A stretch of 64,000 bases of DNA from Chara braunii (lineage: Eukaryota > Plantae > Charophyceae): positions 6,297,115-6,361,114 of the forward strand of contig BFEA01000007.1 in the NCBI GenBank assembly GCA_003427395.1, given 5' to 3'. Shown one piece after another: positions 4,491-46,679 of the stretch (position 1 is its first letter; each line of letters starts with the position of its first letter). The notes under the pieces were generated by a model, which worked only from the letters and a program-made list of their open reading frames with translations, did not search any database and was not told the origin of the DNA. A program made the position numbers and the translations under genes.

Positions 4491-4984
4491 GCATGTGAGT
4501 AAAACTTAAAGACATGCAAGGTATTCAAGGAAGCATCATTTTGTGAGAGATGAGGCATGCATGTGAGTGAGACTTGCTCAAATACCTGCAAGGAACTCAA
4601 GGAAGCAACAAGATTGAAATCAATCATCATCATGTGAGAGAAACGCCATGTATGTGGGTGAGACTAGCTCAAACACTTTCATGGGACTCATGAAAGCAAC
4701 CAAGATTAAAACGGATCATCACAAAGTGGGGAAATGGACGATGCAAGAGGCAAGGATTACCAAAATACTAACATGAGTGAAAACCAAAGTAACGATTTCT
4801 ACCTAAGTGACGAGAGAAAGAGATAGTGAGGTGAGAGTGATTAAAACTGACTTTCGGGTCTGAAATCACCTGGAACAAAGTGACGATTTGTTAGGAAGTG
4901 AAGGAAATGGCTAATGTGTAGACGCTACTAATGGAGGAGCTTCTTCCCATCTTTTTTCTGTATTTGGGAAGCTTTAGTTTTGGA

Positions 4985-5764: not shown

Positions 5765-7569
5765 CTATGAATCCCCCCCGGAGGCGGCCATGTGCGGCCT
5801 AGGCCGCGGTCTGCGACCATGAAAAAAAAAACAAAAAAAACAAAGAATTCAAAAAATTCTGAAAAACAAAAATGTTATGCAAAACATATACTAAACAACT
5901 TTTGCCTTGGGGTCATATCCAACTACTTTACTGAATTTCAAATAAAAAAACACATAAGTTTCATAATATTTTTTTGAAAAAAAAAAAAAAAAACAGTTTT
6001 TGCCTCAGGAAAATTAGTTTTTGAATTTTTAAAATTTGAAGACGAAGTCAAAAAATAGAATAACAAATTGTGCAATTTAGATCTCGAAAAGATCTACAAC
6101 CCTATATTTTTTGTCTTTTTTTTTTAGAATTTTTTTAAATCTAAACAAATCCCTGAAAGTCACGGCCGCACCCAACCGCGGCCTGAGCCGCGGCTATCGT
6201 GATCACGGCCGCCCTCCGAGCTCGACCCCGGGGACGTGTTGTAGGGCGGCTGCCTACCAGCCGAATGCACCCTCTTACCAATTTTTCTTGGTCCTGCACT
6301 TCTTTTGTGTGGATGCATGTGACTGTGTGGCCTTGGGGTGTGCTTGAGTTGCTAGGTCCCCTTACTAACCTCTAGACGAACAAGGGTGACAACTTGGAAG
6401 GAGCTCGCAAGCAGGGGCAGGCGCGGACGGGAGGATCAGAGAATCCCAAGGGTCAGTCAAGGAAGGGGGGAAAAGCGACCAGCTTTTATCCAAAGTCCAA
6501 TTCCAGGGCGGTGGTGTGGGACCACGGTTCGACCTCTATCATTGTCGAGCAGGATGATTCGGTGACCGATATGGTGTGATCACCATGACACCCCTTCATA
6601 AGTTCAACATAATGATCGGTATGAGGACTGGCTCATCGTCCTTGGCGTTAATGGCTCCTGCGACCATACTTGTGGGGCGAGTAATTCAAAGTGACTAGCT
6701 TCGGTACTCAGATTGATTGACTTCTGGGCACCATTCAACATATGGTGGGCTGGCGTGGCGGTGGATCCTCTCCTGCCCCAACGATCTAAGACATGGTGCT
6801 AGGTGCCTGTGGCTTTGGGAAAAGGGGTCCCACGTTGTAAGCGCCGACAACTTCGCAAGGAATAAGGGCGGGGCGACTACTCAAGTCAGAAAAATTCGAC
6901 CCAAAAAGAGACGAATGGTCGATGGGCCGGATTGCGGTGGGGAATGCTGCGCCCCTCAAACGACTACACGCCAGATAGCAGCATTGCAGTGGTGGGGCCG
7001 GGCATAGTCGATGAAGGCGCCTTGAGGAAGCCGGTTCAAATTTCCGGCAAGGAGGGCAGCCCAGTGCGCACCGACCAAGGTCATCCAAAATAAAATGGTA
7101 GATGAGTGATGACAATCTCGGTGGACTGAACGTCGCCCCTGCTGTCTGACAAGAGCCTCTGATAAGAAAAAAAAAAAGGGGGGGCCCGAGCAAGGAAGAA
7201 TCTAAGCGACTGATCTTAGGAGAGACTAAGGGAAACTAGGATTGACGAATGAAGAGGGTAGGAGGAGGCCGCGAATGATGACGCATCTCGGGCAGGTACC
7301 ATTGTCGGCCAAGAGTAAACCAAGATGGATCGGATAAGCTCACATGACCGATAATGACTGATCCGCAGCCTTTACGATTGACCAAGGAATGAGATGAGAG
7401 CGAAGGGAGGGGATGAATTGTGTTGCCACAACAAGGATATAGTTGAGTTCTTGGAGGTACTCCTCGTAACAGTTCCGATCAGAGGAAAGCAAGAGGGACT
7501 GGGGCCCGAGGTAGTGGAAGCTGAACGGACGAGAGAAAGCGGGAGCGAGAGACGTCCAGGGATGCTGTG

Positions 7570-8020
7570 CAAGGACGGGTGACTTTGATCCCAGAGTCCA
7601 CGAAGGAGAGCTTGTGATTGGGAAGAGAAAATCAGGGCGGTAAACTTGGAAAATTTTGAGATTTTCGGGAGAAAGAAACGTCCAGGGAGACTGCGCGAGG
7701 GCGAGTGACTTTAATCCCTGAATCCGCGAAGAGGAGCTTGTGATTGGGAAGAGAAAATCAGGGCGTGGAACTTGGAAAATTTTGAGATTTTCGGGAGCAA
7801 GAAACCTCCAAGGAGACAGCAAGAGGGCGAGCGACTTTAATCCCAGAATCCTCGAAGAAGAGCTTGTGATTGAGAAGAGAAAATCAGGGCGGGAAACAGG
7901 GAAAATTTTGAGATTTTCGGGAGCAAGAAATGTTCAGGTAGAATGCGCGAGCACAAATGGCTTCAGTCCTAGAGTCCACAGAGCAGGAAACTTAGGAAAT
8001 TTGAGATTTTCGGAACTCAC
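7570..8020. repeat. 126-bp tandem repeat in 5' LTR (about 3 copies)
   Basis: gagcttgtgattgggaagagaaaatcagggcg...aaattttgagattttcggg at ~7607, 7734, 7860. Confidence 0.9.
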
Positions 8021-8284
8021 ATGGCATGGACGAAGGAAAAAGAGAGAGTGGGAAACGTCCAGGGGAGCTGCGGGCGGGGACACTCGACTTCGATCCTAGC
8101 AACTGGAAAAGAGAGCTTGTGATTGGAAGGAAATTTCAAGGCGGGAATAATTTCGAAAGTGCTCATGTAGCTCGGGAGGTGGGGCTCGGCCCGTGGTTTG
8201 AAGGGGGGAAAGGAGTATAAAAGTGAAGGAAAGAAGGGCGAAAAAAGAGGGGGGGGGGGGGAAGAAAGAAAGAGGAAGAGAAGG

Positions 8285-9130
8285 GAAGAGCGAACGTAGA
8301 CGGCGTCCGCATAAGAGCGCTCGAGTGGAGTGCACGAGTGCGAGCTGGGGTGGGCCTTCGGTTGCGCTAAAGATCGACTCAGGCCAGAGAGAGCACAGGG
8401 GAAAAGAGAGAGACAAAAAAGAGAGAGAGGGGGGAAGGAGAGAGGGGCGAAGAAGAAGAGAAAGATCGGGCGAACGTAGTCGGCGTCCGCAGAAGAGCGC
8501 TCGAGTGGAGTGCACGAGCGCGGATTGGGGTGGGCCTTCAGTAGCGCTTGAGATCGACTCAGGCCAGAGAGAGCACAGGGAAGAGAGAGACGAAAAAGAG
8601 AGATATGAAAAAGAGAGAGACGAAAAAGAGAGAGAGAGGGGAAGGAGAGAGGGGCGAAAAAGAAAAGAAAGATCTGGCGAACGTAGACGGCGTCCGCAGA
8701 AGAGCGCTCGAGTGGAGTGCACGCTCGCGGACTGGGGTGGGCCTTCGGTAGCGCTTGAGATCGACTCAGGCCAGAGAGAGCAGAGGGGAAGAGCGACGAA
8801 AAAGAGAGAGAGAGGGGAAGGAGAGAGGGGCGAAGAAGAAAATAAAGATTGGGCGAACGTAGACGGCGTCCGCAGAAGAGCGCTCGAGTGGAGCGCACGA
8901 CCGCGAGCTGGGGTGGGCCTTCGGTAGCGCTTGAGATTGACTCAGGCCAGAGAGAGCATAGGGGAAGAAAGACGAAAAAGAGATAGCGAGCGGAAGGAGA
9001 GAGGGGCGAAGAAGAAAAGAAAGATCGGGCGAACATGCGCGGCGTCCACAGAAGAGCGCTCGAGTTGAGTGCACGCGCGCGAACTGGGGTAGGCCTTCGG
9101 TAGCGCTTGATATCGACTCGGGTCCGAGAG
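8285..9130. repeat. ~178-bp tandem repeat in 5' LTR (5 copies): GC-rich core plus purine tract
   Basis: gaacgtagacggcgtccgcagaagagcgctcgagtggagtgcac...gatcgactcaggcca at ~8292, 8472, 8679, 8855, 9030. Confidence 0.92.
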
Positions 9131-11029
9131 AGTGGGTAGGAGGGGACACAGAAAGGGAGAGAAAGGAGAAGGAGACAACGGTGAAGAAAGGAAGCGGTCC
9201 TAGCCACCTACGGAGGAAGTAAGGGGCAAAAGTCGGCTAGCTCGAAGGTGGGCAAGACTGGCGCAAAAAGCTTGGGGAAGACGAGCGGCGCTCATGACTC
9301 TTGGAGTAGTTAAACGGAAAACGGGTGGGCCAAGGGATAGCCCGACAGCAGTTCGAGAGCTCTATGGGAGTCCGCAGTAACCAGGCGGCTCGACGAAGCT
9401 CACCGACAGTCGGGACAGCTTACGAAGGGGTACAGTCGGCTCACGCTGGGGAAAAAGCCCGGAACTTGTGAGAAGGTCATCGGTTGAGCTCCGGCGCCGA
9501 GGTAATGTGTAGTGATAAGGGGAGCCAAGAACGGCTGTACTGGCAATCGAGAAAGAGGAAGAGAAGGGGGGGAACCACCTGGACAAGGGCTCCGGCCTGC
9601 TACATCAGAGATAGGGGGGTCTTGATTTCAAGCAGTACTATCGGCCAAAGGAGGACTAGTGCACGACAAAGCTCGACCAAGAAGGAGAAGCAATTTCGGG
9701 AGATCGAGCAGGTGGAGTCGTCACGAGGTCGTTCAGGGCGCATCCGAGGTTGACATTCCAGCGACTATAGACAATGACAAGGTGTGGCTATGAGTCAAGG
9801 CTTGGAACCATATTTTCCTCGAGCAGGAGAGAACGGCAGCCTCAGGCCACGCTGGCATCCTCAACAGAAGCACTGGATCTTGACAGACAAAAGTGTGCCA
9901 CTCAGGCGTTGGGTCTTTTGTTTGAACACTGGCCGTCAAAAATATCGGGTCACTTACCTTCCACCTTTAGCTGTGAGCCTAGGACAGGGAGCATTAGAAA
10001 AGGCTCGTGCGTGAGAGAAAGGAAGAGAGACAAAAAGAGAGAGGGAGAGAAGGGAGAGGGAAAAAAAGGGAGAGAGGAAGCGAGAAGGGTCATATGGTCG
10101 ACTTGTTCGGGTGCATTGGTTCCCGCTGGCGATACCGACTGGGTGCCTCGTCAAAGCTGGTAGTCGCTGTGTGGGCACCAGGCGCTGAGGAGGGGGAGGA
10201 ACTCTAGAGACATAAGTTGGTAGTGGCGAGAGAGCACCAACATTGAGACTCGAATTCAGAGCTTTCATTATCAGTCTCCAATAGGCACTTCCGAGAGGTA
10301 GTCAGCACTGCTTTGTCGTGCATGCGAGAGAAAGAGAGAGAAAGAGAGAGAGAGGGAGAGAGTGGAAGAGAGAGAGAAATAAAAGAAGAGGGAGGGGGGT
10401 TGAAAGAGAAAGATAGCGAAGAGAGCCGCATGGCCAACTCCTTAAGGTGCCGCTGATACCGACAGAGGGCTTTGTCAATTCGAAAGCTAGTAGTTGTTGT
10501 GTGGTCGTAATCTGGGCGCCGAGCGCCGAAGGGGGGGAAGGACCCTCGAGACGTGAGTTGATAATGGCAAGAGTGCGCTCGCATTGAAACTGATACATTG
10601 CTTGTTTTCTTTCTTTCTTGATTGGTGTCTTTCCTCGTTCTAGTCAGCACTGTTTTTCCCGGCTCACAGATCGTCGTGTACGTATATGTGTGAGAGAGAA
10701 AGAGAGGAAAAGAGAGAGAGGGGAAGAGAAAGGGGGAAAGAGAGGGGAGGGGAAGGCCGCAGACCTCCCCTGGCTCGGCATGGTCCGTGCCCAGACTCAT
10801 TCCTTTTTTTTCAGATTGTTCGCAGCACCGTTGGTTTTGCGTTGTCGGACCGTTGGGCCTGATACTGCCTGGCTCTCCTTGTCAAAGTGAGGATCGGGCC
10901 CGACACAACCAAAAGGGACAATTAGGGATTCGCTCAGGGCTAGTAACTGCTATAGAATTAAGAGAGAATTAAAGGAGAAAACCCGCTGGTAACCGAAGCC
11001 AGGTGTGAGAGCCCCCTTAGGAGACAAAG

Positions 11030-11047
11030 TGGCGCCGTTGCCAGGGA
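11030..11047 (+). promoter_or_regulatory. Primer-binding site complementary to tRNA-Asp 3' end
   Basis: tggcgccgttgccaggga, 3 nt after the LTR's CA. Matches the TGGCGCCGTTGCCGGGGA PBS known from Athila-type gypsy elements. Confidence 0.92.
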
Positions 11048-11559
11048 CGAGCTTTCTTCCGTGACCTCAGCCGGCTCTAGGACTGCGGTGTGAGGGAGGA
11101 CGAGCGTGACAGGTGGTGGAGGGCGTGCCTGTGGTTCGGCGATCCTTTCTTCGACAGTTTTGGTTCCGGCGTCGACTTTTTCGACGCCTTTGTATCGGCT
11201 TCGTTTTCCTTCGGCAGTTTCGGCTTTGGCATCGACTTTTTCAACGGCTTTTTCGGCATCGACTTTTCGGCGTTTTTGCGGCCACGAAAATCCTCGATTG
11301 GGGTCTTGTTTTCCGTGCGGGAGGGGTTGCCGGGTTGGGGGTGAGGGACTTGGGGTGTCGGATTCTCTTGGTTTTGCAGGTCCGCGCGGGCCCTGCTTGC
11401 AACTTCGGCCTCGCTTACACCTTCCAAAAATCCAGGTCTGGGAGGTGTGATTTTTTTTATTTTTATTTTTTTAAATCCGCAAATTAAGAGGGTGAAACAG
11501 TTTGCTTGTGGGGTTTGAATGAGGGTTAAAAATAATCAAGGGAGGGGAAGAAGAGCCGT

Positions 11560-12130
11560 ACGGGAAAATTGTGTGAGTGGGTCCACGCGTGGGCAAGGAG
11601 GAGTGGACGCTAGGAGGAGACAGGAAAGGGGGGTTCGAGAGTGTCCTAGGACGCCGTCGGTTTGGGATCCGAGAGGGTTGGTTCAAAGGGAGAGGGGTTT
11701 GCCGAATATCCTGGACCCACACGGGTTATGGACGTCACCCGCACGGGACGAAACTCCCGCAAGGGAACGGGCTTCTCGAGAGGGGGCTAGGTTTTCGGTT
11801 TAGCCACGGGAAAATTGTGTAGTGGGTCCGCGCGTGGGGAAGGAGGCGTGGACGCTAGGGGGATATAGGAAAGGGGGCTTCGAGAGGGTCCTGGGACACC
11901 GTCGGTTTGGGATCCAAGAGGGTTGGTTCAAAGGGAGAAGGGTTTGCCGAGTATCCTCGACCCACACGGGTTGTGGACGTCACCCGCACGGAACGAAACT
12001 CCCGCAAGGGAACGGGCTTCTCGAGAGGGGGCTGGGTTTTCGGTTCTCGACCCTCGCGGTTTGTGGACGGGATCCGCGCGGGACGCGACTCCCGCGAGGG
12101 AGCGGAATTCTCAAGCAGGTGTTGTCCAGG
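11560..12130 (+). repeat. Duplicated (~245 bp) hairpin-rich leader segment
   Basis: cgggaaaattgtgt...gggtcc.cgcgtggg at ~11560 and ~11806. The ggacg..acccgcacgg.acgaaactcccgcaaggga module occurs three times. Confidence 0.85.
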
Positions 12131-12793
12131 ACTTGGGGGCGAGAAGGGTAGTGCTTCGAGTTCCGAGGCAAAGGGTCGAGGGAACTCCGACCGTCGTTGA
12201 GAACGAGAGGGGTAGAGGGCTACTTCGGGAAGAAGAGAGGAGAGATACGTGGGGCGCCTTGGATGAGGAATCGAAGGCCGAGTCCTGGGTGGACCAGTAT
12301 CTAGCCGATTTCTCGGACTCGGATCTCGGGGACTACTGGGACTACGAAAACGAATTCTAAAAAGGTCGAAGACTACAAGGTACGTATTTAAAGTGGCCAA
12401 ACCTGAGAGACTCTCTTTCTAAAAGTTCTAACTCCCCACCCTTTTTTTTGTGAAGACCCTGATTAAATTCTCTGATTCTGAGAAAGAAAAGAGTCAGATG
12501 GAGGCGAATAAGAAGAAGGGAACGAAGTGAGAACAGTTCACGATACAAGGAGGAGAATGAGAGGGAGTAGACAGGCTAGTGATCATTGATTGATAGGCGG
12601 ATAAAGTCCCGGAACCTGGGTAATTCCAGGCTCGAGGTGGGCCGAGTAGGGGCGTGGTACCGGAAAGGCTAACTTAGGGCTAGAGGTTGGTTCAGTGGGG
12701 GACGTAGGGCACTGGTGTGTGACTTCGGTCCAACACTGGGGAGGGGGTTGCCAGCCTTCTTCGGGGATAACTTGTGTTCGCGGCTAGTGATCA

Positions 12794-13345
12794 TTGATTG
12801 ATAGGCGGATAAAGTCGGAAGAAGTAAAAGGTAAAACGACTGAGGCGCATCTTAAAGTCACCGCAATAATCTTCGTCGAGCCAGGGGCTTGGGCAAAGGT
12901 TGTTGTACCCCTGGTCTTAGGCCAAGTGGGTGGCCTGGACCTATTGATCCAAGAAGTAAGAGAAGTGAGGAGAAGGTGGATAGTTAGGACCCGGAGGGGA
13001 TTTAGCTTTGTGGCGATAAAGGCAGAAAGGTTCGCTCGGGCAGGAGAGCTCCCGAGGGCGAGTTATCCAGTAATCACAAGGGCCCCAGGTTTTGTGTTCT
13101 CGAGCACGGACGAGGATAGGATAGTAAAGCTCTTGGAGAGAGGAAGGAGTTTAGGCCTACCATTTAGGGCCCTGTGGGTACTGTACACTCACTATATCGA
13201 CCAGGGAATTCCTTCGCGAGGGAAACTCTGGGGTATTTTTAGGAGGCTTGGGTCTCTGGAAAAGTCTGTCGCCCTCTCGCCTGAGAAGTACCGCGAGTGG
13301 GTCTTCAAAACAACATCGGTAGATGGTAAGGTTTGCGCTCAGTGA
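12794..13345 (+). CDS. Accessory ORF A, unknown family (paralogue of B, C, F); no ATG start
   Basis: Open 183 codons that align by eye to ORF B (LKVTAIIFVEPGAWAKV / LEVQATVFLGEGSWTEV; FARAGELPRAS / FAELGEVPRAS). Confidence 0.7.
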   Translation: MIDRRIKSEEVKGKTTEAHLKVTAIIFVEPGAWAKVVVPLVLGQVGGLDLLIQEVREVRRRWIVRTRRGFSFVAIKAERFARAGELPRASYPVITRAPGFVFSSTDEDRIVKLLERGRSLGLPFRALWVLYTHYIDQGIPSRGKLWGIFRRLGSLEKSVALSPEKYREWVFKTTSVDGKVCAQ

Positions 13346-14057
13346 AAACGGAGTGGCAGAAACGATACAGGTCGGTAACGGAGGCCAGGTCTTGATCCCT
13401 GAGGATCCCCGCGTAACTCCTTACTGGATGAGTGTTGAGAAGGGAGAGAACATCGGAGAAGGTGCTTACGCGTGGGTCCGAGCTCGTCGACTCACCTGGA
13501 AGGAAGGGGTGCAAAGGGGAGGTCCGCCTCACTTAGGACGGTTCCTAGAGGTCCAGGCTACGGTATTCCTCGGCGAAGGTTCGTGGACTGAAGTTTGGAA
13601 GGGTTTAGTGACCGACCTAGAGATTCATACGGAATACCTTGAGTCCGCGAGGAAGATAGCGAGCGAACTAGTACTAGGCAGTTACGAGGAAGGGACCTTC
13701 GAGTCGTGGACGCAAGTGTCCTTCGCCGAGCTGGGTGAAGTCCCCCGAGCTTCCAAGGTGCTCCACGCAGCCTTGCCTGAATTCCTAGTGCGATTGCTCC
13801 TACGGGACCCGGAAGGGAGAGTGATAGAACAACTCCGAACCGCACAACGATCCGGGGTGCGGACGCAAGGGCTATTTTGGCTTTACACTTGGTGTGTCGA
13901 CGCTGGGGCTCCCCATAGGAGAGAGCTAGCACCTATATTCGAAAGGTTAAGGGAGTTTGAGGAGGTGAGAACTCACGTTGCTGACGTCCCGTACGCCCGC
14001 CTCTTTGGGGAAGAGCAAGTGGCTAACTGGAGGGCGTACGAGGATCGGACGAGGTGA
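13323..14057 (+). CDS. Accessory ORF B, unknown family, 244 aa
   Basis: Intact ATG-to-stop ORF with globular-protein composition. Overlaps A by 23 nt and ends in a TGATG overlap with C. Confidence 0.8.
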   Translation: MVRFALSENGVAETIQVGNGGQVLIPEDPRVTPYWMSVEKGENIGEGAYAWVRARRLTWKEGVQRGGPPHLGRFLEVQATVFLGEGSWTEVWKGLVTDLEIHTEYLESARKIASELVLGSYEEGTFESWTQVSFAELGEVPRASKVLHAALPEFLVRLLLRDPEGRVIEQLRTAQRSGVRTQGLFWLYTWCVDAGAPHRRELAPIFERLREFEEVRTHVADVPYARLFGEEQVANWRAYEDRTR

Positions 14058-14782
14058 TGATAAGGGGAATTCTCGGGACTCTTTGGGCCTCGATAGAGCC
14101 TATAGAAGAGGCAGGGGAGGTTGTCCACATCACGTTACCAAAGGTGAGCCTGGAGGGTCCGACGAGAACCATTCGAGGGAAAGTATCTGAAATCCGCCGA
14201 GGGAAGGCGTTCGTTCGGTTGTCAATGAGTAGCGAGGAGGGGTTGGTGATCGGGAAAGCCAAGATATTCCTTTTGAAGGAGGGTCTCCTGGAGATAGTCG
14301 AGAGTTTGAAATTGGGGGAAGACCATCTCTTATACGCGGAGGCTGTACGAGAGCGTCTAGAGAGGTTACTGGAGGAGGTGAGGCCTCGAGAGAGGTGCCA
14401 GAGGATATATCGAGTGACGTACGCGGGTTGGGAAGAGGTACCGCTATTTGTCGACAGTAACCCCGTGGGAGTCCCTCGTTTCATCCTTGAGCGGGTCTAC
14501 CCCTCCAAAGCGGTCAAGAGGGTAGTAGAGCGGAGGATCTCGATCTTGAACCAATTTCGGTTCACCGGATCGGACCTGCACGCCCTGCTATCGTGGTGCC
14601 TTCGAAACCCGTACCAGGACAATTGGTCGTCACTTGAGGACTTGGGCTACGCCTTCGAAGGCTGGGATCAACACGTGAAGGTGTCGACCATTTTGTGGAG
14701 GTACTTGGGGAAGATCTGTGAGGCGGGGTTAGAAGGACTGGACCCATCGGATCTCATTCGGATTGCGATTGCGTGTCGGTGA
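14057..14782 (+). CDS. Accessory ORF C, unknown family, ~241 aa
   Basis: Intact ORF. VTYAGWEEVP...VPRFI and LHALLSWCL match B's VSFAELGEVP...LPEFL and LFWLYTWCV. Confidence 0.8.
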   Translation: MIRGILGTLWASIEPIEEAGEVVHITLPKVSLEGPTRTIRGKVSEIRRGKAFVRLSMSSEEGLVIGKAKIFLLKEGLLEIVESLKLGEDHLLYAEAVRERLERLLEEVRPRERCQRIYRVTYAGWEEVPLFVDSNPVGVPRFILERVYPSKAVKRVVERRISILNQFRFTGSDLHALLSWCLRNPYQDNWSSLEDLGYAFEGWDQHVKVSTILWRYLGKICEAGLEGLDPSDLIRIAIACR

Positions 14783-14795
14783 AGGAACTTGAGGC

Positions 14796-14990
14796 ATGAG
14801 CGAGTCTGACACCAGAGAACTAGTGAGACTAGAGAGGGTGAGGGCAAAAGTGTATAGAATTCTGACCCTTTGCTAGGAAGAGGGAAGAAGGCCAAGGCCA
14901 GGATCTTTCTACAAGATCAAATTACTTGAGACCACTACAGTTGAGATCTTCGACGAATTGAAGGAGGAGCTGCTCTCGGGAGGAAGATAG
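14796..14990 (+). pseudogene. Accessory small ORF D (65 codons, one internal stop)
   Basis: MSESDTRELVRLERVRAKVYRILTLC*EEGRR...ELKEELLSGGR*, followed by gcATG of the next ORF. Confidence 0.5.
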
Positions 14991-14992
14991 GC

Positions 14993-15469
14993 ATGAGAGT
15001 TACCCTCGCCTTTGACTCGATAGCCTAGGAATAAGAGACGCGGGACGTCGGCCCCGAGGTCGAGGTAGAAGTGGGGGTGGAACTTAGCCCGGGTCTCGGA
15101 GAGAACCAGAAGGCTCGAGCTAAGAAGGAATTCCTTGTCGAGATCCGACGGTTAGCTTTGTGGAAGAGGAGATCTTTGAGCGCGTTAGCGAAGTTTTTGG
15201 TTTTTGTTAGTAAGGCGGGGGAAGTGCGGTTCTCTAGGACTTGGTGAGAACCCTTGCTTGGGGTCGAGAGAAAGTTTGAGGAGGACTCTAGGTGGCTCGG
15301 GTCTCCCTTCGAAGCCAGGTTGTACCTAATTGAGGCCCGTTTCTGGGATAGGACGGGAGAATACGAGAAAGCATTGCAAAAGACGATTCTCGACCAAGGC
15401 GAGAGAGCGCGAGGGAGGTGTGAGGATTCGTTAGCAGAATTGGCCGAGAGATTAGCCCGGGTAAGGTAG
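14993..15469 (+). pseudogene. Accessory ORF E (~158 codons, three internal stops)
   Basis: ATG at 14993 is in frame with the 15254-15469 ORF. Each stop is one transition from a sense codon. Confidence 0.6.
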
Positions 15470-15471
15470 GC

Positions 15472-16309
15472 ATGTCAATGATTAGATACAGTAGGGGGAG
15501 CCATGTCGGGACCTTGGAGAGGGCTTGGAAGTCGGGGGCTAGGTATGCAGTAACCCTCCCCAAGATTAGGGAGGTAGGGAAGGCCATTACGGAGTTCTTC
15601 AAGATCTACGGGCAGGAAACGATAGTTCATTTTTCAATAATTTTTTAGGGAGGTACCCGCACGCGAAGGGCAAAAATTTGACTGTCTCACGACGATAGGC
15701 AGTTCTTTGCGACCGAGTTAGCGGAAGGAAAGCCCTAGACCGGCTAAGGGGGTTGAGAGGGGGTGCCGCCGAAGGACGCGTGGTAGATAGGGTTGGGTAC
15801 CGAGGGAGGCTAGAGGTCCTTAGGGCGGCTCACGGCCGGACCTGGGAAATTCCGGCTTGGGCGTACCGGTTGCTCTACCTCGATGACGCAGTTGTGATGA
15901 AGGTTCTAAATAGAGGATAAGTCGTTGAAAAATTTCCCCTAGAAGAGGAGAAGGGACACGAGTTATTCACCAGTGTTGGGAGTCGCGGGAGCATACGGAC
16001 TTCGAGTGGTGGGCGTTAGTAGGGGAGTTTATTAAGCCTCTGTTTAGAGGGCAAGCCGAAGAGGTGGATAGAGCTTTGATTAAGAGGTGTTCTCAAGAGG
16101 GGATTAGGGGCATCTCTGATCTAGAGATTGTCAGCCTAGCGTTAACTGCTTGCAAGGAGAAACGAGTACGCGACTCTTGGTGGACAGTGACCCGCGAAGA
16201 ATCTGAGGGTGATAGTGAGGAACGAGAATCAAGTGAAGGGGAGGAAAGCTCGGAAGAAAGTAACGAGGCGGAAGGACAGGAGAGTGACACTAGCGAGGAA
16301 AACGACTAG
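15472..16309 (+). pseudogene. Accessory ORF F, frameshifted paralogue of ORF C with an acidic tail
   Basis: MIR...VTLPKI vs C's MIR...ITLPKV; RVGYRGRLEV vs RVTYAGWEEV; KRCSQEGIRGISDLEIVSLALTAC vs KICEAGLEGLDPSDLIRIAIAC. Confidence 0.7.
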
Positions 16310-16327
16310 AGATTGGTGATAGGGTGC

Positions 16328-18680
16328 ATGGAAAGCGTGGTGGAGCATGAAATCGCCCGATCACCTAAGACCACTTACATGAGGCGAACCGAGGAGGATA
16401 CTGAGTTAGGGGCGAGATTAAGCAAGTCAACTGAAGGAGTGACCGAGGGGATGGAAGTTATTGGTAACGCCTTGAAGAGCACGGAGGCACCCCTCGGAGA
16501 GAGGACTATGGAATTGCGAGCGAGTTCCGAGGAGCGTTTGCATCGGGAAATAGAGCCATGAATACCAGTAAGAGAAAGGATGGCAGAAGCCACGAGGGGC
16601 TTCCCGAAGTTCCCGGTCGAAACTCGATGGGCGGGTCAAGTGGACGCAGAAGAGAGAGTCGGCGAAGTGCAGGAGTTCCTTCATGATAGGGTTGGGTGTT
16701 GGGCACCGAGGAGGGGCGAAGAAGGGAGCCTAAGGAGGAGGGAACTGGGAGACGAACGACCAACAGAAATTGGGGGAGGACCACAAAGGTGGGCCGGGAG
16801 AGAGACCGGCTCCGCATGGGTACAAGAGGAAGCAGTAGGAAGGAATGTGGGAGGATTCGGAGATGTCTGGAGGGGGTTTAGGGGCCAAGAACCCGTGCGT
16901 TGGGAACGCGAAGACCCGGGCAATAGAGGCCACCGTGAGGAAGAGCCGTGGGGACCTCCGAGAGCTCGAACACGGATGGAAGATCTGGATCCCGCTTGGT
17001 ACAAACCGGACGACCCAGTGATAGATGGCCGACTGAAGGTCCCTACTTCCATCGGTATGATGACCGGCGAGTCCTCTACTACGATGTGAACCTAGGACTA
17101 AAATCGCTCTACGTCAATGGAAGGGACGTGACCGGGTTCGTGGAGAAATTGGAAGAAATTTTCGGAGAAAGAATGGATCAACCATTTTATACAATATTCG
17201 GACCCTGAACTGGACCAGGCCATTAGGGCAATATACCCGGCAGATGGGAGGTGGAAAACCTTCAAGAGCAGCTTACTGCGGATCTTCGCATGTGACGACT
17301 TGATCCCTACGATAGAAGGGTTGCGTCGGGCCTCGAGGGGAGCAAGAGAGTCTGGTGGCGTTCACTCCGAGATTCAAACGCTTGTCACAAGCCTTGGTGG
17401 ATAGGGGGATGCTCTCGGAAGTAGACAGGTGTGTAATGTTCATCTTGCACCTACCCGAAGAAAAGAGGGAAGAAGTTCTCGAGAGGGCCCCAAGAGACTC
17501 GGCGAATTTCGAAAGAGTTGCCGAGGTGGTCTTTATGGGAGGGGGAATGGACGTGTGAGAGTATATGAAGGAAAGTCTGTACATGGCACTCCGAAGTATG
17601 TGTACTCAAAAAAACTATGGTCCTCGTGGGAACGATAGGCAGCCGTCTGGGCCTCCCGGCCAACGCTGGGGAGGTGGACCCTCACGTTGGCGGAACGAAT
17701 CCGCTAACCAAGGGAACTGGAGAAACGACCGAGAAGCTGGAGGGAGTCGGGTCTCGGAATGGGGGAGTTCCCACTGGAAGGATGCTAGAGATGGGAGATT
17801 GGGAGATCCTCCCCAGCCTAGGGCCGCAAGCGCTCAACCCGAGTTAAGCCAAGCTAGGACTTCATAGTCGTCCGGTCCTTCGACGACCATGGGGGCAACG
17901 CCCCAAGTAGGCCCGCGTCCTAGTAATCTGCCTCCTCAGAGCAGGTGTGTCTATTGCAATGAGGGTGGTCATGTCAAGCGGGAGTGTCCTCAGCTCACGG
18001 AAGCCCTAAGGTTAGGGGTGGTAAAGTTGAATGAAAATAAGTAGGTTGTGTGGGGAGATGATGGAGAAGCGGTCTCCTTCTACCCCTCAATGAAGATAAA
18101 TGTGGACAAAAGGGTAGCCCTACAAGAGGCAAGACTGGGCAAGAAGCCAGAGGTTGGTGGGACCTCCGGCTCCTCCCGGGTCCAAATGACGGAGGCACCA
18201 GGAGGGGTGTCCATAAGGGAGCCGCAAGTGTCTAGCATCAAGTTCGTTCAGACCAAGCCTGAAGAAGAAGGATCGTGCCTGAGAGTGAGAACCCAAGTTG
18301 GGGCCGGACCGTCTAAGGGCAAGGAGAGCTCGACAGTGGACGGAGGGAAGAGGAGTGGCGACAACGGCCAACCAACGGTAGACGCAAGAACTACGGAGGA
18401 AAGGAAGGGGGAAGAGCCTACGTCGCCGAAATCACCTAGGAAGAAAGGGCCGAGGAAGTTCGAAATGAAGTGTACCTTGGACGAGATAGACATGGTTGCA
18501 CCCCTGCGGAGGACTCTAATGCAGCCAATGCAATGCACCCTTCTGGAGTATTTGGTGGCCAGCAAGAGCGCTAGAGACGAGCTCCTGAGCATCACTAGGA
18601 AGGTGAGAATCCCGCTCGNGGGAGGGCCTACAGTTCCTGGGGATGGACCCGCCAAGAAGGAGGTGCAGTCTTCTTGAATT
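16328..18680 (+). pseudogene. gag: gag, fragmented, with CCHC zinc knuckle
   Basis: Capsid-like NGRDVTGFVEKLE... and FTPRFKRLSQAL...; knuckle CVYCNEGGHVKREC at ~17946-17987. Multiple stops and frameshifts. Confidence 0.85.
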
Positions 18681-18699
18681 ACGATAGAAGAACTGTCGG

Positions 18700-21600
18700 C
18701 CAGTTTCTTCTCGGAGGAAGAGGCTAAAACATTCTATGTATTAGGGAGTGGCCAGCTCCAAGCCGTGGTGAGTGGGAAGAAGATGAGAGCCCTAGTGGAC
18801 AATGGGTCCGAATCTACCGTATGTCGAGACTCCATTTCGGGGGAGTTAGGGTTAGAAGTGGATAGAGGGGTATCCATGTCCATGGTAGTTGCGGACAACA
18901 AGCTCCAACCGGCGGAAGGCGTATGTAACAGCCCCTTGATTGAGGTCGCAGGAGTGGAAGCTACAATTCCGATTTTTCTCGGTGAAGGAGTGTTCTTCTG
19001 AGTTGATCCTCGGGAGAACTTGGCTGAGCGCAGTCCATGCTACCACGGTCGACCTTCCGGACGGGAGTCAGACCCTCTCAATTCAGAGTCCGGACGGAAT
19101 CCGAGTGGTTCTAAAGACGGTGGATGCTCAAGATGAGCGGAACCGAACCAGTATTCCAAGGAGGAAGGAAGCCCAGTCACGGGTATGCCAGGTCCGACTA
19201 GAAGAGTCACCCTTTGCCGAGAAGGAACCCCCGGGGGACCGGGTAGATGTCGAGGATGTTGGGGACCGAGTTATAATCGATGGGGTAGGATACGAGAAAG
19301 AGGACGAAGAAGAAGAATTCGGTGGGTGCGTAAGGCTGTCTTTTTTTCGGGAATCCCTATAGCTGGCAGAGGTAAGAAGCATAAAATCGTAGCGATAAAA
19401 ATGAAACCCGTTGCTGTCAGTCGGGATAGGACGGGGGAAACCTCGATATCGGAGGAGGAGATAGCCGATATCGTCCGGAAGCGGAAGGAGACCGAAGGGC
19501 AGAGAATTACGGCTGACAGGCTAGCAAAAATAGACATAGGGGATGGAAACCTCACGAAACAAGAGAAGGAATATGTGGCAATGACCCTAAGGGATTGCGA
19601 CAAGGCCATAGCCTTCGACGATTCGGAGAGAGGGAGGATCGACCCGAGGTATGCTAAGCCCACCTGGATCCATACGATCCCTCACGTACCTTGGAAAGAT
19701 AGACCCCAGTGGAAGTATGCGCAAAAAGAGAAGGAGGAGACAATGACCTTCATCAAAGAGAAGATAAAGACGTTTATCGCGGAGCCTTGTGAGAGTGCCT
19801 ACTCCAACAAATGGTTTTTTATGAGAAAAGGGGGTAGCAACAAACTAAGGTGGATCCAGAATCTCCAAAGGACCAACGCGGTCACCATAAGGGATGTGGG
19901 GTCGATACCTGAGGCGGATCTACTTGCGGAAGGTTCGGCAGGTCACTCAATCTACTCGATCTGCGATCTCTTCTCGGGCTATGATGAAATTCCGTTGGAT
20001 TACCGAGATAAACACATGACCGCGATGCACACACCTCTAGGGCTTAGTTCAAATGATGGTGGTACCGATGGGGTGGACGAACGGGGTAGCGGTGTTCCAA
20101 AGAGCCATGATCGTGGTCCTCAAGGAGTTCATACCGGATAAGGTAGAAGTCTTCCTTGACGACTTCCCTATAAAGGGGCCGGTCCAAAAGAATGAGACGG
20201 AAGTCTTCCCTGGAGTGAGGAAGTTCGTGGTACACCACATGATGGATATAAAGGAGGTCCTTGCGAAATTAGACGACGCCAACCTTACCGTAAGTGGAAC
20301 GAATAGTCGTTGGGGAGTATCGTCAATCAAGATATTGGGCTTCATCTGTGACAAGGATGGGCGGAGGCCCGATCCCGCGAAATTAGAAAAATTGATGACC
20401 TGGTCGTCGCCGCTAAAATCCATCACGGAGGTTAGCCAGTTTTTAGGGGTGGTGGGCTACTGGAGGATCTTTATAAAAGGCTACAGCGAGAAGGCGGAGC
20501 CACTAAGGCGGCTGCTTAAGAAAGTTGAGGGATGGGTCGAGGAAGAAGAGCAGGTCACGGCCATGGAAATCCTTAAGGACGAATTCTGAGAGGGGAGGCA
20601 AGTCCTAAGCGTTCCGTTCTTCGAGGACGAGGAGAACCACCCGTTTATTGTATCTACGTATGCGGGGTCATACTTCGTAGGGGGGCTTCTGTCGCAAAGG
20701 GATGGAGACGGGAAAGAAAGACCCCTGCGTTTTGAGAGTCGGGCCTTAAATCCCGCCGAGAGGAACTACAACCAATTCAAGAAAGAAGTGTTGGGGGTGT
20801 TGCACTGCCTAAAGACCTTCCGCCACTACATCTACGGGAGGCGGTTCCTCCTAAGAATAGAGCCAACCGCAGTAGCTACCACCCTCCAAAAGGACTTCTC
20901 ACTAACTGACCCGACTATTGCTAGGTGGATTATCCATATCAGGCTCTACGATTATAGGGTCGAAAGAATATCCAGGGACGAAAACCAAGTCGCGGACGCC
21001 TTGTCCAGACTTCCCATCCGAGAAGAGGACTACCCAAAGTTGGAGGAAGTAACGATGTCAACGGCCAAGGACGAGACCCTCCATATTGCCGCTAACAAGG
21101 TGCAGGTGGCGGTGACCGTCCAAGATAAAGAAGAGGGCCCTAGGACGTTCCTCGCTAACCTTTACGACGAAAAATATTGTGATATTGGGTTATACCTGAC
21201 AGGTCGGGAAAAGGGCACCGAAGTAGTCAAAAGGGAGGCTCTCGGGTATTGCCTATGAGGAGGCCACCTCTTTAAGAGGCCCACCAAGTTTGCGATTCCC
21301 ATGAGGGTGCTTTGCGATCCGGAAGAAAAGAGGGCGGTCATAGAAGATTTGCATGACGGTGTCGCCGGAGGACATAGGGGGGTAAAAAGGACTTTTGATA
21401 AGGTCCGTAGCCTCTATTGGTGGGACGGGCAGTACAGAGAAGTCGAGAAGTATTGTTCGACCTGTGAGGCTTGCCAAAAGAGGGCGACAGTTCGCTACAA
21501 GGAGCCCCTAGTTCCGTCTATCCCCAGCGTACCGGGCGAGAAGGTCCATATAGACTTGGTAACCATGCCTAAGGGCGTCGGCAGACTTCGGTACATAATC

Positions 21601-22477
21601 AACGTCCACGACGACCTCACTGGATTCGTGGAAGCTAAGGTCATTAAGAAGAAGAAGACCGAGGAGGTGAGTGACTTTCTCTTAGAGTACATCACACGGT
21701 ACGGCTGTGTCGGAAAGATAGTGATGGATAGGGGTTCCGAGTTCTTAAGTCAAAAGGTCAAGGTGATATTGGAGAAAGCGGGGATTAAGGCGGCCTACAT
21801 GACCGCCTATAACCCCCAAAACAACGCCCCGGTCGAAAGAGGTCACCAAACGCTTGTAGATGTCTTAGCAAAGTGGTGCAAGGGGCGCACGGAACAGTGG
21901 CTAAAGTACTTGCGCTATGTAGTTTGGGCCGACAACATCACGGTCAAATCAAGTACGGGGTCCTCCTTACACGCTTTGGTTTGGCAGACACTGCCCCCTG
22001 CCCATCGAATTCCACGTTGACACTTGGACGAGTGTCTCGTGGAAGACCAACATGACAAGCGGGGAATTGTTAGAGGCGAGGATACAACAAATAACTGAAA
22101 ATCTTGACGCCGGACTTACCAAGGTCGGGAAGAACATCGAGAAGGAGAGGGTGAAAGGAAAAGAAAGGTGGGACAAGAATTTGCGGGTCCGACAAAGGCC
22201 GATAGGGACTAGTGACCTCGTCCTAATGTACGACTCGTCGCTAGAAAAGACTTGGAGCAGAAAACCAGCCAACTGATGGATGAGGCCGTACCGAGTCCTA
22301 AAGAGGTTGGATGGGGGAGCATACCTACTCGCCGAATTAGATGGGACTAGATTACGAGACCCTATCGCAGGGCCTCGTCTCAAACTTTTCAGATGGCGAG
22401 GAACCCCGAGGGAGGAACCAAAGAGGAAAGGGAAGGAAGCGGTCGACGCGGAGGTGACCGTCACTCATGAGAATTGA
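18700..22477 (+). pseudogene. pol: pol (aspartic protease, RT, RNase H, integrase), fragmented
   Basis: PR ALVDNGSE. RT YSICDLFSGYD, PMGWTNG, FLDD. RH RPLRFESRAL..ERNYNQFKKEVL, NQVADALSR. IN HHCC (LHDGVAGGH...CSTCEAC), HIDL, MDRGSEF, VERGHQT. Confidence 0.95.
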
Positions 22478-23133: not shown

Positions 23134-26100
23134 TGTCAGGTGGCTGCCAACCAGCCGATTGCACCCTCTTACCAAACAAAGATGATTTTTTCGGCGTGTT
23201 TTCCTTGGTCCTTCACTTATTTTGTGTGGATGCATATGACTGTCTGGCCTGGGGGTGTGCATGAATTGCTAGGTCCCCTTACTAACCTCTAGACGAACAG
23301 GGGTGACAACTCGGAAGGAGCTCGCAAGCAGGGGCAGGCACGGACGGGAGGATCAGAGAATCCCAAGGGTCAGTCAAGGAAGGGGGGAAAAGCGACTGGC
23401 TTTTATCCAAAGTCTGATGCCAGGGCGCTGATGTGAGACCACGGTCCGACCTCTATCATTGCCGAGTAGGATGATTCGGTGACCGATACGGTGTGATCAC
23501 TATGACGCCCCTTCATAAGTTCAGCATAATGATCGGTATGAGGACTGGCTCATCGTCCTCGGCGTCAATGGCTCCTGCGACCATACTGGTGGGGCGAGTA
23601 ATTCAAAGTGACTAGCTTCGGTACTCACAACGATTGGTTACTGGGCACCATTCGGCATACGGTGGGCTGGCGTGGCGGCGGATCCTCTCCTGCCCCAACG
23701 ATCTAAGACATGGCGCAAGGTGCCTGTGGCTTTGGGAAAAGGGGTCCCACGCTGTAAGGGCCGACAGCTTCGCAAGGAATAACGACGGGGTGACTATTCA
23801 AGTCAGAATAATTCGACCTAAGAAAAGACGAATGGTCAATGGGCGGGATAGCGGTGGGGAACGCTGCGCCCCTCAAAAGATTACACGCCTGATAGGCAGG
23901 ATTGCAGTGGTGGGGCCGGGCATAGTCGATGAAGGCCCCTTGAGGAAGCCTGTTCAAATTTCCCGCAAGGAGGGCGGCCCAGTGCGCACTGACCGGGGTC
24001 ATCCAGAATAAAATGGTAGACGAATGGTGACAATCTCGGTGAACTGAACGTCGCCCCTGCCCTCTGACAAGAGCCTCTGATAAGAAAAAGAAAAGGGGGG
24101 GGGCGACCAAGGAAGAATCTGAAGCGAATGGTCTTAGGAGAGACTAAGGGAAGCTAGGGTTGACAAATGAAGAGGGTAGGAGGAGGCCGCGAAGGATGAT
24201 GCATCTTGGGCAGGTAGCATTGTCAGCCGAGAGTAAACCAAGATGGATTGGATAAGCTCACATGACCGGTAATGGGTGATCAGCAGCCTCTACGACTGAC
24301 CAAGGAATAAGATGAGAGCGAAGGGAGGGGATGACTTGCGTTGCTACAACAAGGATACAATTGAGTTTTTGGAGGTACTCCCCGTAACCGTTCCGATCAG
24401 AGGAGAGCAAGAGGGACTGGGGCCCGAGGTAGCGGAAGCTGAACGGACGGGAGAAAGCGGGAGCGAGAGACGTCTAGGGAGGTTGTGCAAGGACCGACGA
24501 TTTTAATCCCAGAGTCCACGAAGGAGAGCTTGTGATTGGGAAGAGAAAATTAGGGTGGGAAACTTGGAAAATTTTGAGATTTTCATGAGCAAGAAGCTCC
24601 AGAGAGACTGCGCGAGGGCGAGCGACTTTAATCCCAGAATCCACGAAGAAGAGCTTGTGATAAGGAAGAGAAAATCAGGGCGGGAAACTTGGAAAATTTT
24701 GAGATTTTCGGGAGCAAGAAACCTCCAAGGAGACAGCAAGAGGGCGAGCGACTTTAATCCCAGAATCCTCGAAGAAGAGCTTGTGATTGGGAAGAGAAAA
24801 TCAGGGCGGGAAACTTGGAAAATTTTGAGATTTTCGGGAGCAAGAAACGTCCAGGGAGACTGCGCGAGGGCGAGCGACTTTAATCCCAGAATCCGCGAAG
24901 AAAAGCTTGTGATTGCGGAGAGAAAATCAGAGCGGGAAACTTGGAAATTTTTGAGATTTTCGGGAGCAAGAAACATCTAGGGAGAATGCGTGAGCACAAA
25001 CTGCTTCAGTCCTAGAGTTCGCAAAGCGGAAAACTTAGGAAACTTGAGATTTTCGGAATTCACATGGCAAGGATGAAGGAGAAGGAGAGAGCGGGAAATG
25101 TCCACGGGAGCTACGGGGGGGGACACGGGACTTCAATCCTAGCAACAGGAAAAGCGAGCTTGTGATTGGAAGGAAGTTTCAAGGCGGGAACAATTTCGAA
25201 AATGCTCATGCAACTCGGGAGGTGGGGCTCAGACCGTGGTTTGAAGGGGGAAAAGGAGTATAAAAGAGAAGGAGAGAAGTGTGAAAAAAGAGGGGGGGGG
25301 TGAAAAAAAAAGAGAAATAGGAAGAGAAGGGAAGGGCGAACGTAGACGGCGTCCGTAGAAGAGCGCTTGAGTGGAGTGCACGTGTGCGAGCTGGGGTGGG
25401 CCTTCGGTAGCGCCAGAGATCGACTCAGGCCAGAGAGAGCACAGGGGAAGAGAGAGATGAAAGAGAGAGAGAGAGGGGAAGGAGAGAGGGGCAAAGAAGA
25501 AGAGAAAGATCGGGCGAACGTAGCCGGCGTCCGCAGAAGAGCGCTCGAGTAGAGTGCACGGGCGCGGACTGGGGTGGGCCTTCGGTAGCGCTTGAGATCG
25601 ACTAAGACCAGAGAGAGCACAAGGGAAGAGAGAGACGAAAAAGACAGAGAAAGGGGAACCAGAGAGGGGTGAAGAAGAAAAGAAAGATCGGGTGAACGTA
25701 GACGGCGTTCACAGTAGAGCGCTCGAGTGGAATGCACGTGAGATGACTGGGGTGGGCCTTCGGTAGCGCTTGAGATTGACTTAGGCCAGAGAGAGCACGG
25801 GGGAAGAGAGAGAGAGGGGAAGGAGAGAGGGGCGAAGAAGAAAAGAAAGATCGGGCGAACGTAGACGGCGTCCGCAGAACAGCGCTCGAGTGGAATGCAT
25901 GTGCGCGGACTAGGGTAGGCCTTCAGTAGTGCTTGAGATTGACTCAGGCCAGAGAGAGCACAAGGGAAGAGAGAGACGAAAAAGAGAGAGAGAGGGGAAG
26001 GAGAGAGGGGCGAAGAAGAAAAGAAAGATCGGGCGAACGTAGACGACATCCGCAGAAGAACGCTCGAGTGGAGTGCACGCTCGCGAGCTGGGGTGGGCCT

Positions 26101-46496: not shown

Positions 46497-46679
46497 CCTG
46501 TAGTGGATCGATTCAAACATAAACCTTCCACTACCTGATCAATTCCAAGCAACCTATTAGTCAAGTAGATAGTCGAATAATACGCACAAGAATATTCGAC
46601 CATATTTCCAATTTCATTCAATACACTTGCAAACAGTTAGTAAGCGACAATACACGAGATCCGTTTCTCATAAGTAGTT

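Follow-up and report, generated by a model that had tools for sequence, protein, structure and literature searches.

The Chara braunii element

The stretch of DNA analysed here (the window) comprises 64,000 nucleotides of contig BFEA01000007.1 of Chara braunii and contains a retrotransposon whose features all lie on the + strand. The element is delimited by a 5′ LTR (6240..11026), some 4.8 kb long and containing tandem repeats, and by a matching 3′ LTR (23134..28736), the identity of the former to 23134-28736 being 86-90%. The LTR pair has TG...CA ends, as read by eye, and K2P divergence between the LTRs is 0.094 and 0.087 in two blocks. A clean target-site duplication flanking the LTRs was looked for and not found, and without it an age drawn from the LTR divergence (~0.09) is unsafe. 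A primer-binding-site-like sequence with a TGG start (11030..11048) lies 3 nt past the 5′ LTR and may resemble the tRNA-Asp type of Athila. It is followed by an AUG-poor leader (11049..12793) with a direct repeat at 245-nt spacing. Within 11030-12793, ATG occurs 5 times against 12.3 expected and CAT is low too (3 against 7.8). Folding of the leader gave z −2.3 for 12570-12820 and z +0.7 for 11030-11500, and no shunt-type hairpin is claimed.

Downstream, a broken region (16328..18977) carries an aspartic protease (PF13650, E 3e-5) and is collinear with the sister gene models P0002, P0005, P0006 and P0010. Pfam returned no gag match in this region, whose position and CCHC knuckle nevertheless point to gag. 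The pol region (19356..22460), also broken, encodes reverse transcriptase, RNase H and integrase in gypsy order (PF00078, PF17917, PF17921, PF00665), with 77-86% identity to P0012 and P0014. The element thus has the two LTRs, the primer site after the first LTR and the order protease, reverse transcriptase, RNase H and integrase that define Ty3/gypsy elements. The window pol pieces and P0012 matched RT_RNaseH families only, with no additional archaeal-type RNase H, a trait of Tat and Ogre, and the integrase tail gave no Pfam match to a chromodomain, the chromovirus trait.

Six ORFs upstream of gag

Six sense-strand ORFs, A to F, are present between the primer-binding-site-like sequence (11030) and the gag start (16328), as an earlier note on this DNA had described. 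ORFs A (12794..13345) and B (13323..14057) form one pair of paralogues; A has 59-62% identity to P0001, P0002 and P0004, and B, whole at 244 aa, has 66-71% identity to P0003, P0005 and P0006. The other pair consists of ORF C (14057..14782), whole at 241 aa and 78% identical to P0005, and ORF F (15472..16309), which has an acidic tail and is open over 227-247 aa in P0008 and P0010-P0013. Between them lie two ORFs that are not paralogues: D (14796..14990, ~64 aa, 61% identity to the sister sequence L002), with one stop here (14874), and E (14993..15469, 158 aa), with three (15026, 15032, 15245). In L002, D has an ATG of its own and is open over 62 aa, and E is open over 158 aa; E is also found in P0002. 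D and E are conserved coding genes, a point absent from the earlier note.

The copy in the window is dead: A is truncated, and D-F and gag-pol are broken. F had been described as a single ORF, which it is not in this copy, where it is interrupted by stops at 15646, 15679 and 15918 and by changes of frame near 15730 and near 15960. The proposed contrast between stop-free ORFs A-C and a broken gag-pol holds for B and C; A is stop-free, but it has no ATG and ~50 N-terminal residues are missing. In the sister A models P0002 and P0004 the methionine lies ~50 residues further up, and that stretch aligns with the N-terminus of B. The site of the ORF A start in sister copies is occupied here by an exact 35-nt copy (12782..12816) of 12574-12608, likely filler at a deletion, and eight DNA contigs continue with different sequence past 12788.

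Two pairs of ancient paralogues

The proposal that A, B, C and F are tandem paralogues was borne out by similarity beyond chance once sister-copy proteins were included. A and B are related on the window sequences alone (local score 127 against a shuffle mean of 32.5, fitted p 1.7e-11), and their profile comparison reached a probability of 98.3%. With window sequences alone, neither A-C (p 0.51) nor B-C (p 0.034) was convincing and C-F aligned in patches only. Profile comparison with sister-copy proteins joined C to F (probability 97.4%, E 1.2e-11) and the AB profile to the CF profile (probability 87.3%, E 3.8e-6). Compared directly, A/B and F show a weak link (probability 2.5%, E 0.018; 11.7 bits for a sister F on the AB profile, 0/500 shuffles), so the A/B-F relation leans mostly on C as a bridge. 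Judged from sequence comparison, the four proteins group as ((A,B),(C,F)), and the divergence among them exceeds 1.8 changes per site. Among the motifs reported as shared, the (I/V)F strand, E(V/L)P...P and L(Y/F/L)(T/S) fall in common columns. The cysteine that ends the C/F motif is kept in none of seven sister F proteins, so this is no motif for metal binding. Scored on the paralogue profiles, E gave nothing above shuffles. Read in another frame, D scored as a possible fifth paralogue (4.7 bits, 0/300, one of 54 tests), a reading rejected because it is the other frame that the sister keeps open.

Purifying selection across copies

All named relatives are C. braunii gene models, and at least 13 annotated ‘hypothetical proteins’ of this species are stitched from pieces of this retrotransposon. 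The cassette is present family-wide: 2641 DNA contig pieces fill 30 of 30 bins at a depth like that of gag, and the order C-D-E-F-gag is the same in the sister copy as in the window. Comparison of the window with one sister copy (L001 and L002, which overlap without mismatch), covering C (3′ part), D, E and F only, gave dN/dS of 0.07-0.34 overall at near-saturated dS. The values were 0.07-0.15 for C against L002, 0.19 for D, 0.20-0.34 for E and 0.08-0.19 for F against L001/L002; with transition weighting, cassette ORFs gave 0.15-0.34 and the N-terminal part of gag 0.32. For A and B the signs of selection are at the protein level only, 7, 35, 18 and 0 of 200 neutral runs being as good in a conservative-change test. 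The ORFs compared are under purifying selection in the active lineage, at least as strong as that on N-terminal gag. The family had also been called a ‘diversifying effector’ family, a description that the between-copy dN/dS of 0.07-0.34 does not support. In other respects the earlier proposal survived the points on which it had been staked: similarity is significant, dN/dS is well below 1, sister copies carry the cassette and no family match was found.

One could suppose that the cassette is neutral cargo, or that host domestication acted on B and C at this locus, as these two ORFs are whole in a copy otherwise broken and little RNA is seen. This is very improbable, since four ORFs, of which three are broken in the window, have dN/dS far below 1, sister copies keep the order and A is truncated. 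Neutrality of the cassette is largely refuted.

AUG avoidance and the expression of the cassette

The best clue to how the cassette is expressed came from its avoidance of AUG. In 12794-16327, AUG is the most depleted of the 64 triplets (12 against 35 expected, z −5.5); its complement CAT shows no deficit there (22 against 18) and the gag-protease region has a surplus of AUG (61 against 45). When synonymous codons were shuffled with the proteins held fixed (2000 shuffles), out-of-frame AUG was found once in window A-E against 11.0 expected and once in sister C-E against 7.2, a result reached by 0 of 2000 shuffles in either case. Outside A-E there was no such deficit (observed/expected 3/4.9 and 7/9.4 for F, 33/35 for gag-pol), and none of eight other triplets was depleted in A-E by this test. 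Including starts, A-E contain 6 AUGs against 25.8 expected, a ratio of 0.23. Codons preceding TG codons end in A in no case and in G in 16 (p 4e-4), compared with 8 and 11 in gag-pol, and internal methionines number 7 in 2697 residues of sister cassette proteins against 94 in 4114 of their gag-pol, the sequences being related and not independent. Because the deficit persists across a dS of 1-3 between window and sister, it is being maintained.

The ORFs are also tightly packed. From A through gag, the gaps between a stop and the next start are −23, −1, 13, 2, 2 and 18 nt in the window, and 4, 8 and 19 nt plus one 20-nt overlap in the sister; at the B/C junction the start of C overlaps the stop of B (TGATG). 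Start contexts are sub-optimal in 10 of 10 cases, a weak signal since 79 of 100 AUGs inside gag-pol are sub-optimal too.

Upstream ORFs free of AUG are how leaky scanning is recognised in rice tungro bacilliform virus (RTBV) and badnaviruses (PMC5902531), and it is quite probable that ribosomes scan through A-E. A single capped RNA would carry A-F; each start codon would capture a share of the ribosomes, and the remainder would scan through AUG-free coding sequence to the next start, with reinitiation assisting at tight junctions and F acting like the last cistron. If F behaves in this way, gag-pol would need reinitiation past F or a separate spliced RNA. Six leaky starts in series would leave little for gag. 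Gag is normally an abundant protein.

Non-LTR elements and caulimoviruses are known to couple termination to reinitiation (PMC5902531), and the downstream ORFs could be reached by this route alone or through an element-encoded transactivator, as with the TAV of CaMV. The TGATG at B/C, the 2-nt gaps at D/E and E/F and the 18-19 nt before gag in both copies would suit such coupling. It is nonetheless an unlikely explanation, since ribosomes translating an ORF are blind to its internal AUGs, which leaves the loss of out-of-frame AUG unexplained, and the gaps vary between copies (2 to 4 nt, 2 to 8 nt, and a 13-nt gap against a 20-nt overlap at C/D). Reinitiation may operate beside scanning.

Alternatively, the ORFs might be made from alternatively spliced or subgenomic RNAs, like the accessory genes of complex retroviruses and CERV of the LTR element Cer1, which comes from a spliced mRNA (PMC10309623). 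An AG within 5 nt before the start is found at five of the six starts in the window, but these AGs are mostly part of stop codons, the sister lacks the YAG at E, F and gag, and the sequence upstream of the starts is purine-rich (5-11 T per 40 nt). Further, separate mRNAs have no need of AUG-free coding regions, and we regard this mode as improbable for the cassette. Splicing is still plausible for gag-pol alone. No RNA source for the cassette was listed among the indexed runs; RNA reads over it numbered 174 in one run and 2 and 0 in two others, ran in both directions, were mostly less than 95% alike and showed no joints, at a coverage too low to test splicing. Their coverage tracks DNA depth (r 0.82), and such reads fit contaminating genomic DNA, or else background transcription from other copies.

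Serial leaky scanning is the mode that we favour. On balance, A-F are best explained as an accessory cassette of six genes, conserved and selected in a multi-copy gypsy family and probably scanned from one capped RNA.

Possible functions of the proteins

The paralogues had been described as unrecognised proteins, and they remain so: Pfam gave no match and the best hit among PDB sequences had E 0.22. There were likewise no Rfam matches, no usable match in the ESM Atlas with B and one sister F as queries, and nothing for B among 757 candidates at near lengths or eight viral contigs, nor for the A/B/C patterns in 268 metagenome contigs. A search of 1.84 billion sequences with a three-sequence profile lacking F, which may miss distant relatives, returned four proteins. 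The cassette proteins are Arg-rich, and hydropathy detected no membrane segment in B, C, E and F (peak 0.25-1.37), A being borderline (1.8-2.0). With membrane segments absent apart from this borderline case, and with a position before gag rather than after pol, they differ from env-like ORFs.

AlphaFold models were poor (pLDDT 48.9 for B, 47.2 for C), no Foldseek match of the cassette models reached E 0.001, and the prediction of a B-C complex, at a score of 0.00, speaks neither for nor against one. A loose resemblance of C to hotdog folds had been mentioned; no hotdog-fold chain was among the matches listed for the searches with these low-confidence models. For C residues 17-123 of the pLDDT-47 model, cap-binding domains of segmented negative-strand virus polymerases were the best or near-best matches (Z 3.4-5.4, all below 8), with Hantaan L at Z 5.4, rmsd 7.2 and 76 aligned residues and reptarenavirus L at Z 4.5, rmsd 4.2 and 84 aligned. 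These low-confidence matches have 5-12% identity, gelsolin-type folds score equally, and cap-binding domains are absent from the top 50 wide rows of the B model, so that the viral cap-binding likeness of C is a lead only. The top wide rows of the B model, helical eIF4G-type HEAT domains (Z 6.0 and 5.8), were set aside as a common helical arrangement.

Tentatively, the four paralogues may be soluble two-domain proteins that act, in graded amounts, on the RNA of the element itself, in its export, protection or translation. A bolder version, which is a long shot, would combine a six- or seven-cistron mRNA, serially scanned over ~5 kb, with paralogues forming a new cap- or RNA-binding family that tunes ribosome entry on, or shields, its own capped RNA. 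It is possible, if doubtful, that the paralogues are instead counter-defence proteins with anti-silencing activity, like VANC of DNA transposons, each with a different host target. Retention of four copies across more than 1.8 changes per site would agree with this, as would the higher dN/dS and more predicted host contacts described for Arabidopsis accessory TE proteins (PMC13547354); against it, there is no fast change between copies (dN/dS 0.07-0.34, a pairwise average compatible with a few positively selected sites) and no match to the plant-mobile-domain or other chromatin families. An unlikely third reading sees them as proteins associated with the particle or with movement between cells, comparable to the small ORFs before the badnavirus polyprotein: the position before the capsid gene and the predicted mode of translation recall badnavirus ORFs I and II, but no movement-protein family was matched by sequence and a viral-library fold search with low-confidence models found nothing at E ≤ 0.001.

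Comparison with known systems

In reports on plant LTR elements, extra ORFs number one or two in each element; most lie behind pol and have no known function. In Ogre, the extra ORF sits 5′ of gag. The C. braunii element resembles Ogre/OTA non-chromovirus gypsy elements in its very long LTRs with tandem repeats, total size of ~22 kb and extra internal sense ORFs, as these are described in PMC6317226, PMC6431247 and PMC7264820. In contrast to the one or two extra ORFs of Ogre, 57% with a plant mobile domain, it has six, four of them paralogous, and PF10536 was matched by none of 13 aligned members at E up to 1, nor in the Pfam search of the window. It also differs from Tat elements, which have an added RNase H, in giving no second RNase H match.

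RTBV and badnavirus ORFs I-III are comparably packed, small and without internal AUG ahead of the capsid/RT polyprotein (PMC5902531), but there the upstream ORFs are two, non-paralogous and span ~900 nt, compared with the five AUG-poor ORFs that span ~2.7 kb here, in an LTR element that has an integrase. Bicistronic genes of green algae, for which leaky scanning was tested in vivo, show the same AUG deficit ahead of the last ORF and none within it (PMC11291117); as described there, they are two-ORF host genes of chlorophytes with an observed/expected AUG of 0.43-0.49, against 0.23 in Chara A-E including starts. CERV of the C. elegans element Cer1 is a family-less accessory protein of an LTR element that acts on element RNA (PMC10309623), a role only proposed for the Chara paralogues; it is a single gene expressed from a spliced mRNA, and the comparison with the cassette concerns its role.

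In conclusion, this block of six selected genes, four of them old paralogues, shows that an LTR element can build up an accessory gene family within its own genome, like complex viruses. The AUG signal provides a testable handle on the number of long ORFs that a eukaryotic ribosome can scan on one RNA, the scanning proposed here covering five cistrons, well past the two of badnaviruses. It would extend leaky-scanning polycistrons from the chlorophyte algae towards streptophytes. If the cap- or RNA-binding proposal were also true, the element would supply its own means of controlling translation, in the algal lineage that is sister to land plants.

Paralogous ORFs upstream of gag

The six ORFs (A to F) fill 12794-16309 in the sense direction, between a primer-binding-like site and gag of a Ty3/gypsy element of ~22.5 kb, whose LTRs (6240-11026 and 23134-28736) share 86-90% identity, with K2P of 0.094 and 0.087 in two blocks. 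A clean target-site duplication was looked for at the ends of the element and none was found. Pfam analysis of the element revealed the domain order of gypsy elements (protease, RT, RNase H, integrase), with every frame broken. Two Tat/Ogre features were looked for and neither was found: an added archaeal-type RNase H in pol and the plant mobile domain PF10536 in the extra ORFs. Protein sequence searches yielded 13 named relatives, every one a Chara braunii gene model, with 53-86% identity to the window; such models made up 3 of 4 hits in the search of representatives, the fourth hit having no name, and 2 of 2 and 9 of 9 (one a repeat) in two more searches.

The proposal of the earlier note that A, B, C and F are paralogues has been borne out. 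Similarity between A and B is plain from the window sequence alone (p 1.7e-11 against shuffles); their matches by codon position (0.42, 0.53, 0.28) and the different codons used at 31 of 40 common residues are the pattern of old coding constraint. For C and F, sister proteins were needed. C scored 17.8 bits on an A+B profile, exceeding 500/500 shuffles, and a 213-residue alignment of a sister F with C of the window showed 27% identity (E 1e-8). Profile-profile comparison gave probabilities of 98.3% for A-B, 97.4% for C-F and 87.3% (E 3.8e-6) for AB-CF, with just 2.5% for AB against F on its own. D and E scored no higher than shuffles on the paralogue profiles. A tree built on 14 of the 17 rows (the other 3, shorter than 150 aa, were left out) grouped the paralogues as ((A,B),(C,F)) at 99/97 support and recovered each ORF as its own clade (100/99). 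Paralogues are separated by paths of ~1.8 to 3 changes per site and sequences of one ORF mostly by <0.4; the duplications are therefore far older than the spread of the present copies.

State of the window copy and nature of the proteins

The same note had set intact extra ORFs against a broken gag-pol. This holds for B and C, which are whole at 244 and 241 aa, but not for A, which lacks an ATG, nor for D (one stop), E (three stops) and F (three stops and two frame changes); the window copy is decayed throughout. Because sister models of A begin ~50 residues further up, in a stretch aligning with the N-terminal start of B, and because an exact 35-nt copy of 12574-12608 sits at the ORF A join, this join is probably a deletion with filler.

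That the proteins would be unrecognised proved correct, as no family or solved sequence was matched in Pfam or PDB sequences, nor any cluster of the ESM Atlas by B and a sister F. In low-confidence models of B and C, the N-terminal half is rich in strands and closed by a long helix, and the C-terminal half is helical. The columns that are conserved hold hydrophobic residues, Pro and a single Glu, and form no metal or catalytic pattern. For residues 17-123 of C, the sole recurring structural theme of the low-confidence model was a cap-binding domain like that in polymerases of segmented RNA viruses. It occupied 5 of 50 listed rows in a wide search (Z 3.7-4.5) and the top row in a second one (Z 5.4, rmsd 7.2), in which many rows repeat one influenza domain; all these scores lie below the tool's meaningful level. 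The proteins are Arg-rich and, save for a borderline stretch in A, devoid of membrane segments. With low confidence, the paralogues are predicted to be RNA-acting accessory factors; a counter-defence function is nearly as likely, and a role in particles or movement less so.

Presence across the family and selection

In the DNA run X1, 2641 contig pieces cover 30/30 bins of 11000-18000. Summed depth, which does not equal copy number, is 102-487 over the cassette, akin to gag (158-605), and single contigs have 5-9. Presence in sister elements was also checked. One sister copy, represented by two contigs (L001, L002; 395 nt overlap, 0 mismatches) and 67-70% identical to the window, carries C-D-E-F-gag with an ATG for each, D and E open and one stop in F. 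In sister gene models, cassette ORFs are combined with parts of gag or pol and their order is unchanged, as A-E-F-gag (P0002), B-C-gag (P0005) and F-gag (P0007, P0010); these models are stitched and are no evidence for real fusions.

Between window and sister, a single pair near saturation (dS 1.05-3.5) with A and B absent, dN/dS is well below 1. The values without/with transition weighting were 0.07/0.15 for C (137 codons), saturated/0.19 for D (61), 0.20/0.34 for E (155), 0.08/0.19 for F (241) and 0.13/0.32 for the gag N-terminus (100), with bootstrap upper limits of 0.17-0.53. Conservative-change tests of A and B had a mixed outcome (7, 35, 18 and 0 of 200).

Other features of the window

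Both CAG and CTG are scarce in gag-pol (16328-22300), a pattern that decay of methylated CHG sites would produce. Each LTR is mildly AUG-poor over its 3' two thirds (7500-11026, 24420-28736; 9/15.8, 11/18.1, 16/22.4, 13/19.9) and not over its first 1.3 kb; the AUG-poor portion may mark the transcribed part. In the leader (11519-12360), an ATG frame at 11519 enters a 245-nt-spaced repeat, whose number varies from copy to copy, as contig joints show, and a 163-codon frame (11869-12360) has an acidic and aromatic tail; no Pfam match was obtained for these frames, a possible broken seventh ORF. DNA depth at 12170-12871 is 759-1415, 2-4 times that of the cassette, and 12570-12820 folds somewhat more stably than shuffles (z -2.3); the deeper region is perhaps a cis element common to more copies. 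Elsewhere, the minus strand carries a second, distant gypsy pol (37700-40400; 45% identity to the gene-model protein P0012), with no paralogue-profile match nearby, and another element's remnant (62650-63790; 60-78% to the first 446 residues of P0005). A satellite of ~30 copies of a 91-nt unit lies at 1660-4630, and tandem arrays of a 147-nt unit that is internally inverted-symmetric occupy 40360-41310 and 45840-46500.

AUG avoidance and translation

Of all triplets in the cassette, ATG is depleted most strongly (12 against 35 expected, ORF starts accounting for five of the 12; CAT, 22 against 18). ATG counts are 17 against 47 from primer site to gag start, 61 against 45 in gag-protease and 40 against 38.5 in RT-integrase. 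With synonymous codons shuffled and proteins held fixed (2000 per set), out-of-frame AUGs numbered 1 against 11.0 in window A-E and 1 against 7.2 in sister C-E (0/2000 shuffles each). For F the numbers were 3 against 4.9 and 7 against 9.4, and for gag-pol 33 against 35. A-E hold two internal Met codons, one of which (14225) is private to the window copy, as 25/25 overlapping contigs differ; F is also Met-poor. Because the loss is strand-specific, affects a single triplet in all frames and is retained across saturated synonymous sites, it points to ribosomes scanning through the A-E ORFs. Downstream ORFs, which are packed stop-to-start, might instead be reached by reinitiation alone or splicing alone, but neither would require AUG loss. 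Such scanning would resemble that of RTBV and badnaviruses, whose polyprotein is reached by leaky scanning through two AUG-free ORFs (PMC5902531). Green algal bicistrons also use leaky scanning, and their last ORF has no AUG deficit (PMC11291117), a pattern that F matches in its out-of-frame AUGs. Before gag, both copies have a gap of 18-19 nt and the same start context, which would allow gag to be reached by reinitiation or via spliced RNA. None of the start contexts is optimal, but they do not exceed background in this respect. RNA reads over the cassette (174, 2 and 0 in three runs, 6-13% of each scanned) run in both directions and follow DNA depth.

Relation to known elements

The 2018 Chara genome paper reportedly describes an atypical gypsy group. 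The literature searched, mostly by listing and with few subscription papers, contained no report of the Chara element family itself, of a multi-paralogue cassette before gag or of leaky scanning through several LTR-element ORFs. Plant surveys present extra ORFs as common in gypsy elements and mostly without known domains, with one or two in Ogre, in contrast to the six before gag here (PMC6317226, PMC6431247, PMC7264820); bdelloid elements have one captured third ORF (PMC5408684). In conclusion, the accessory cassette, apparently undescribed so far, is real and under selection, and it carries a strong, testable predicted translation signal.
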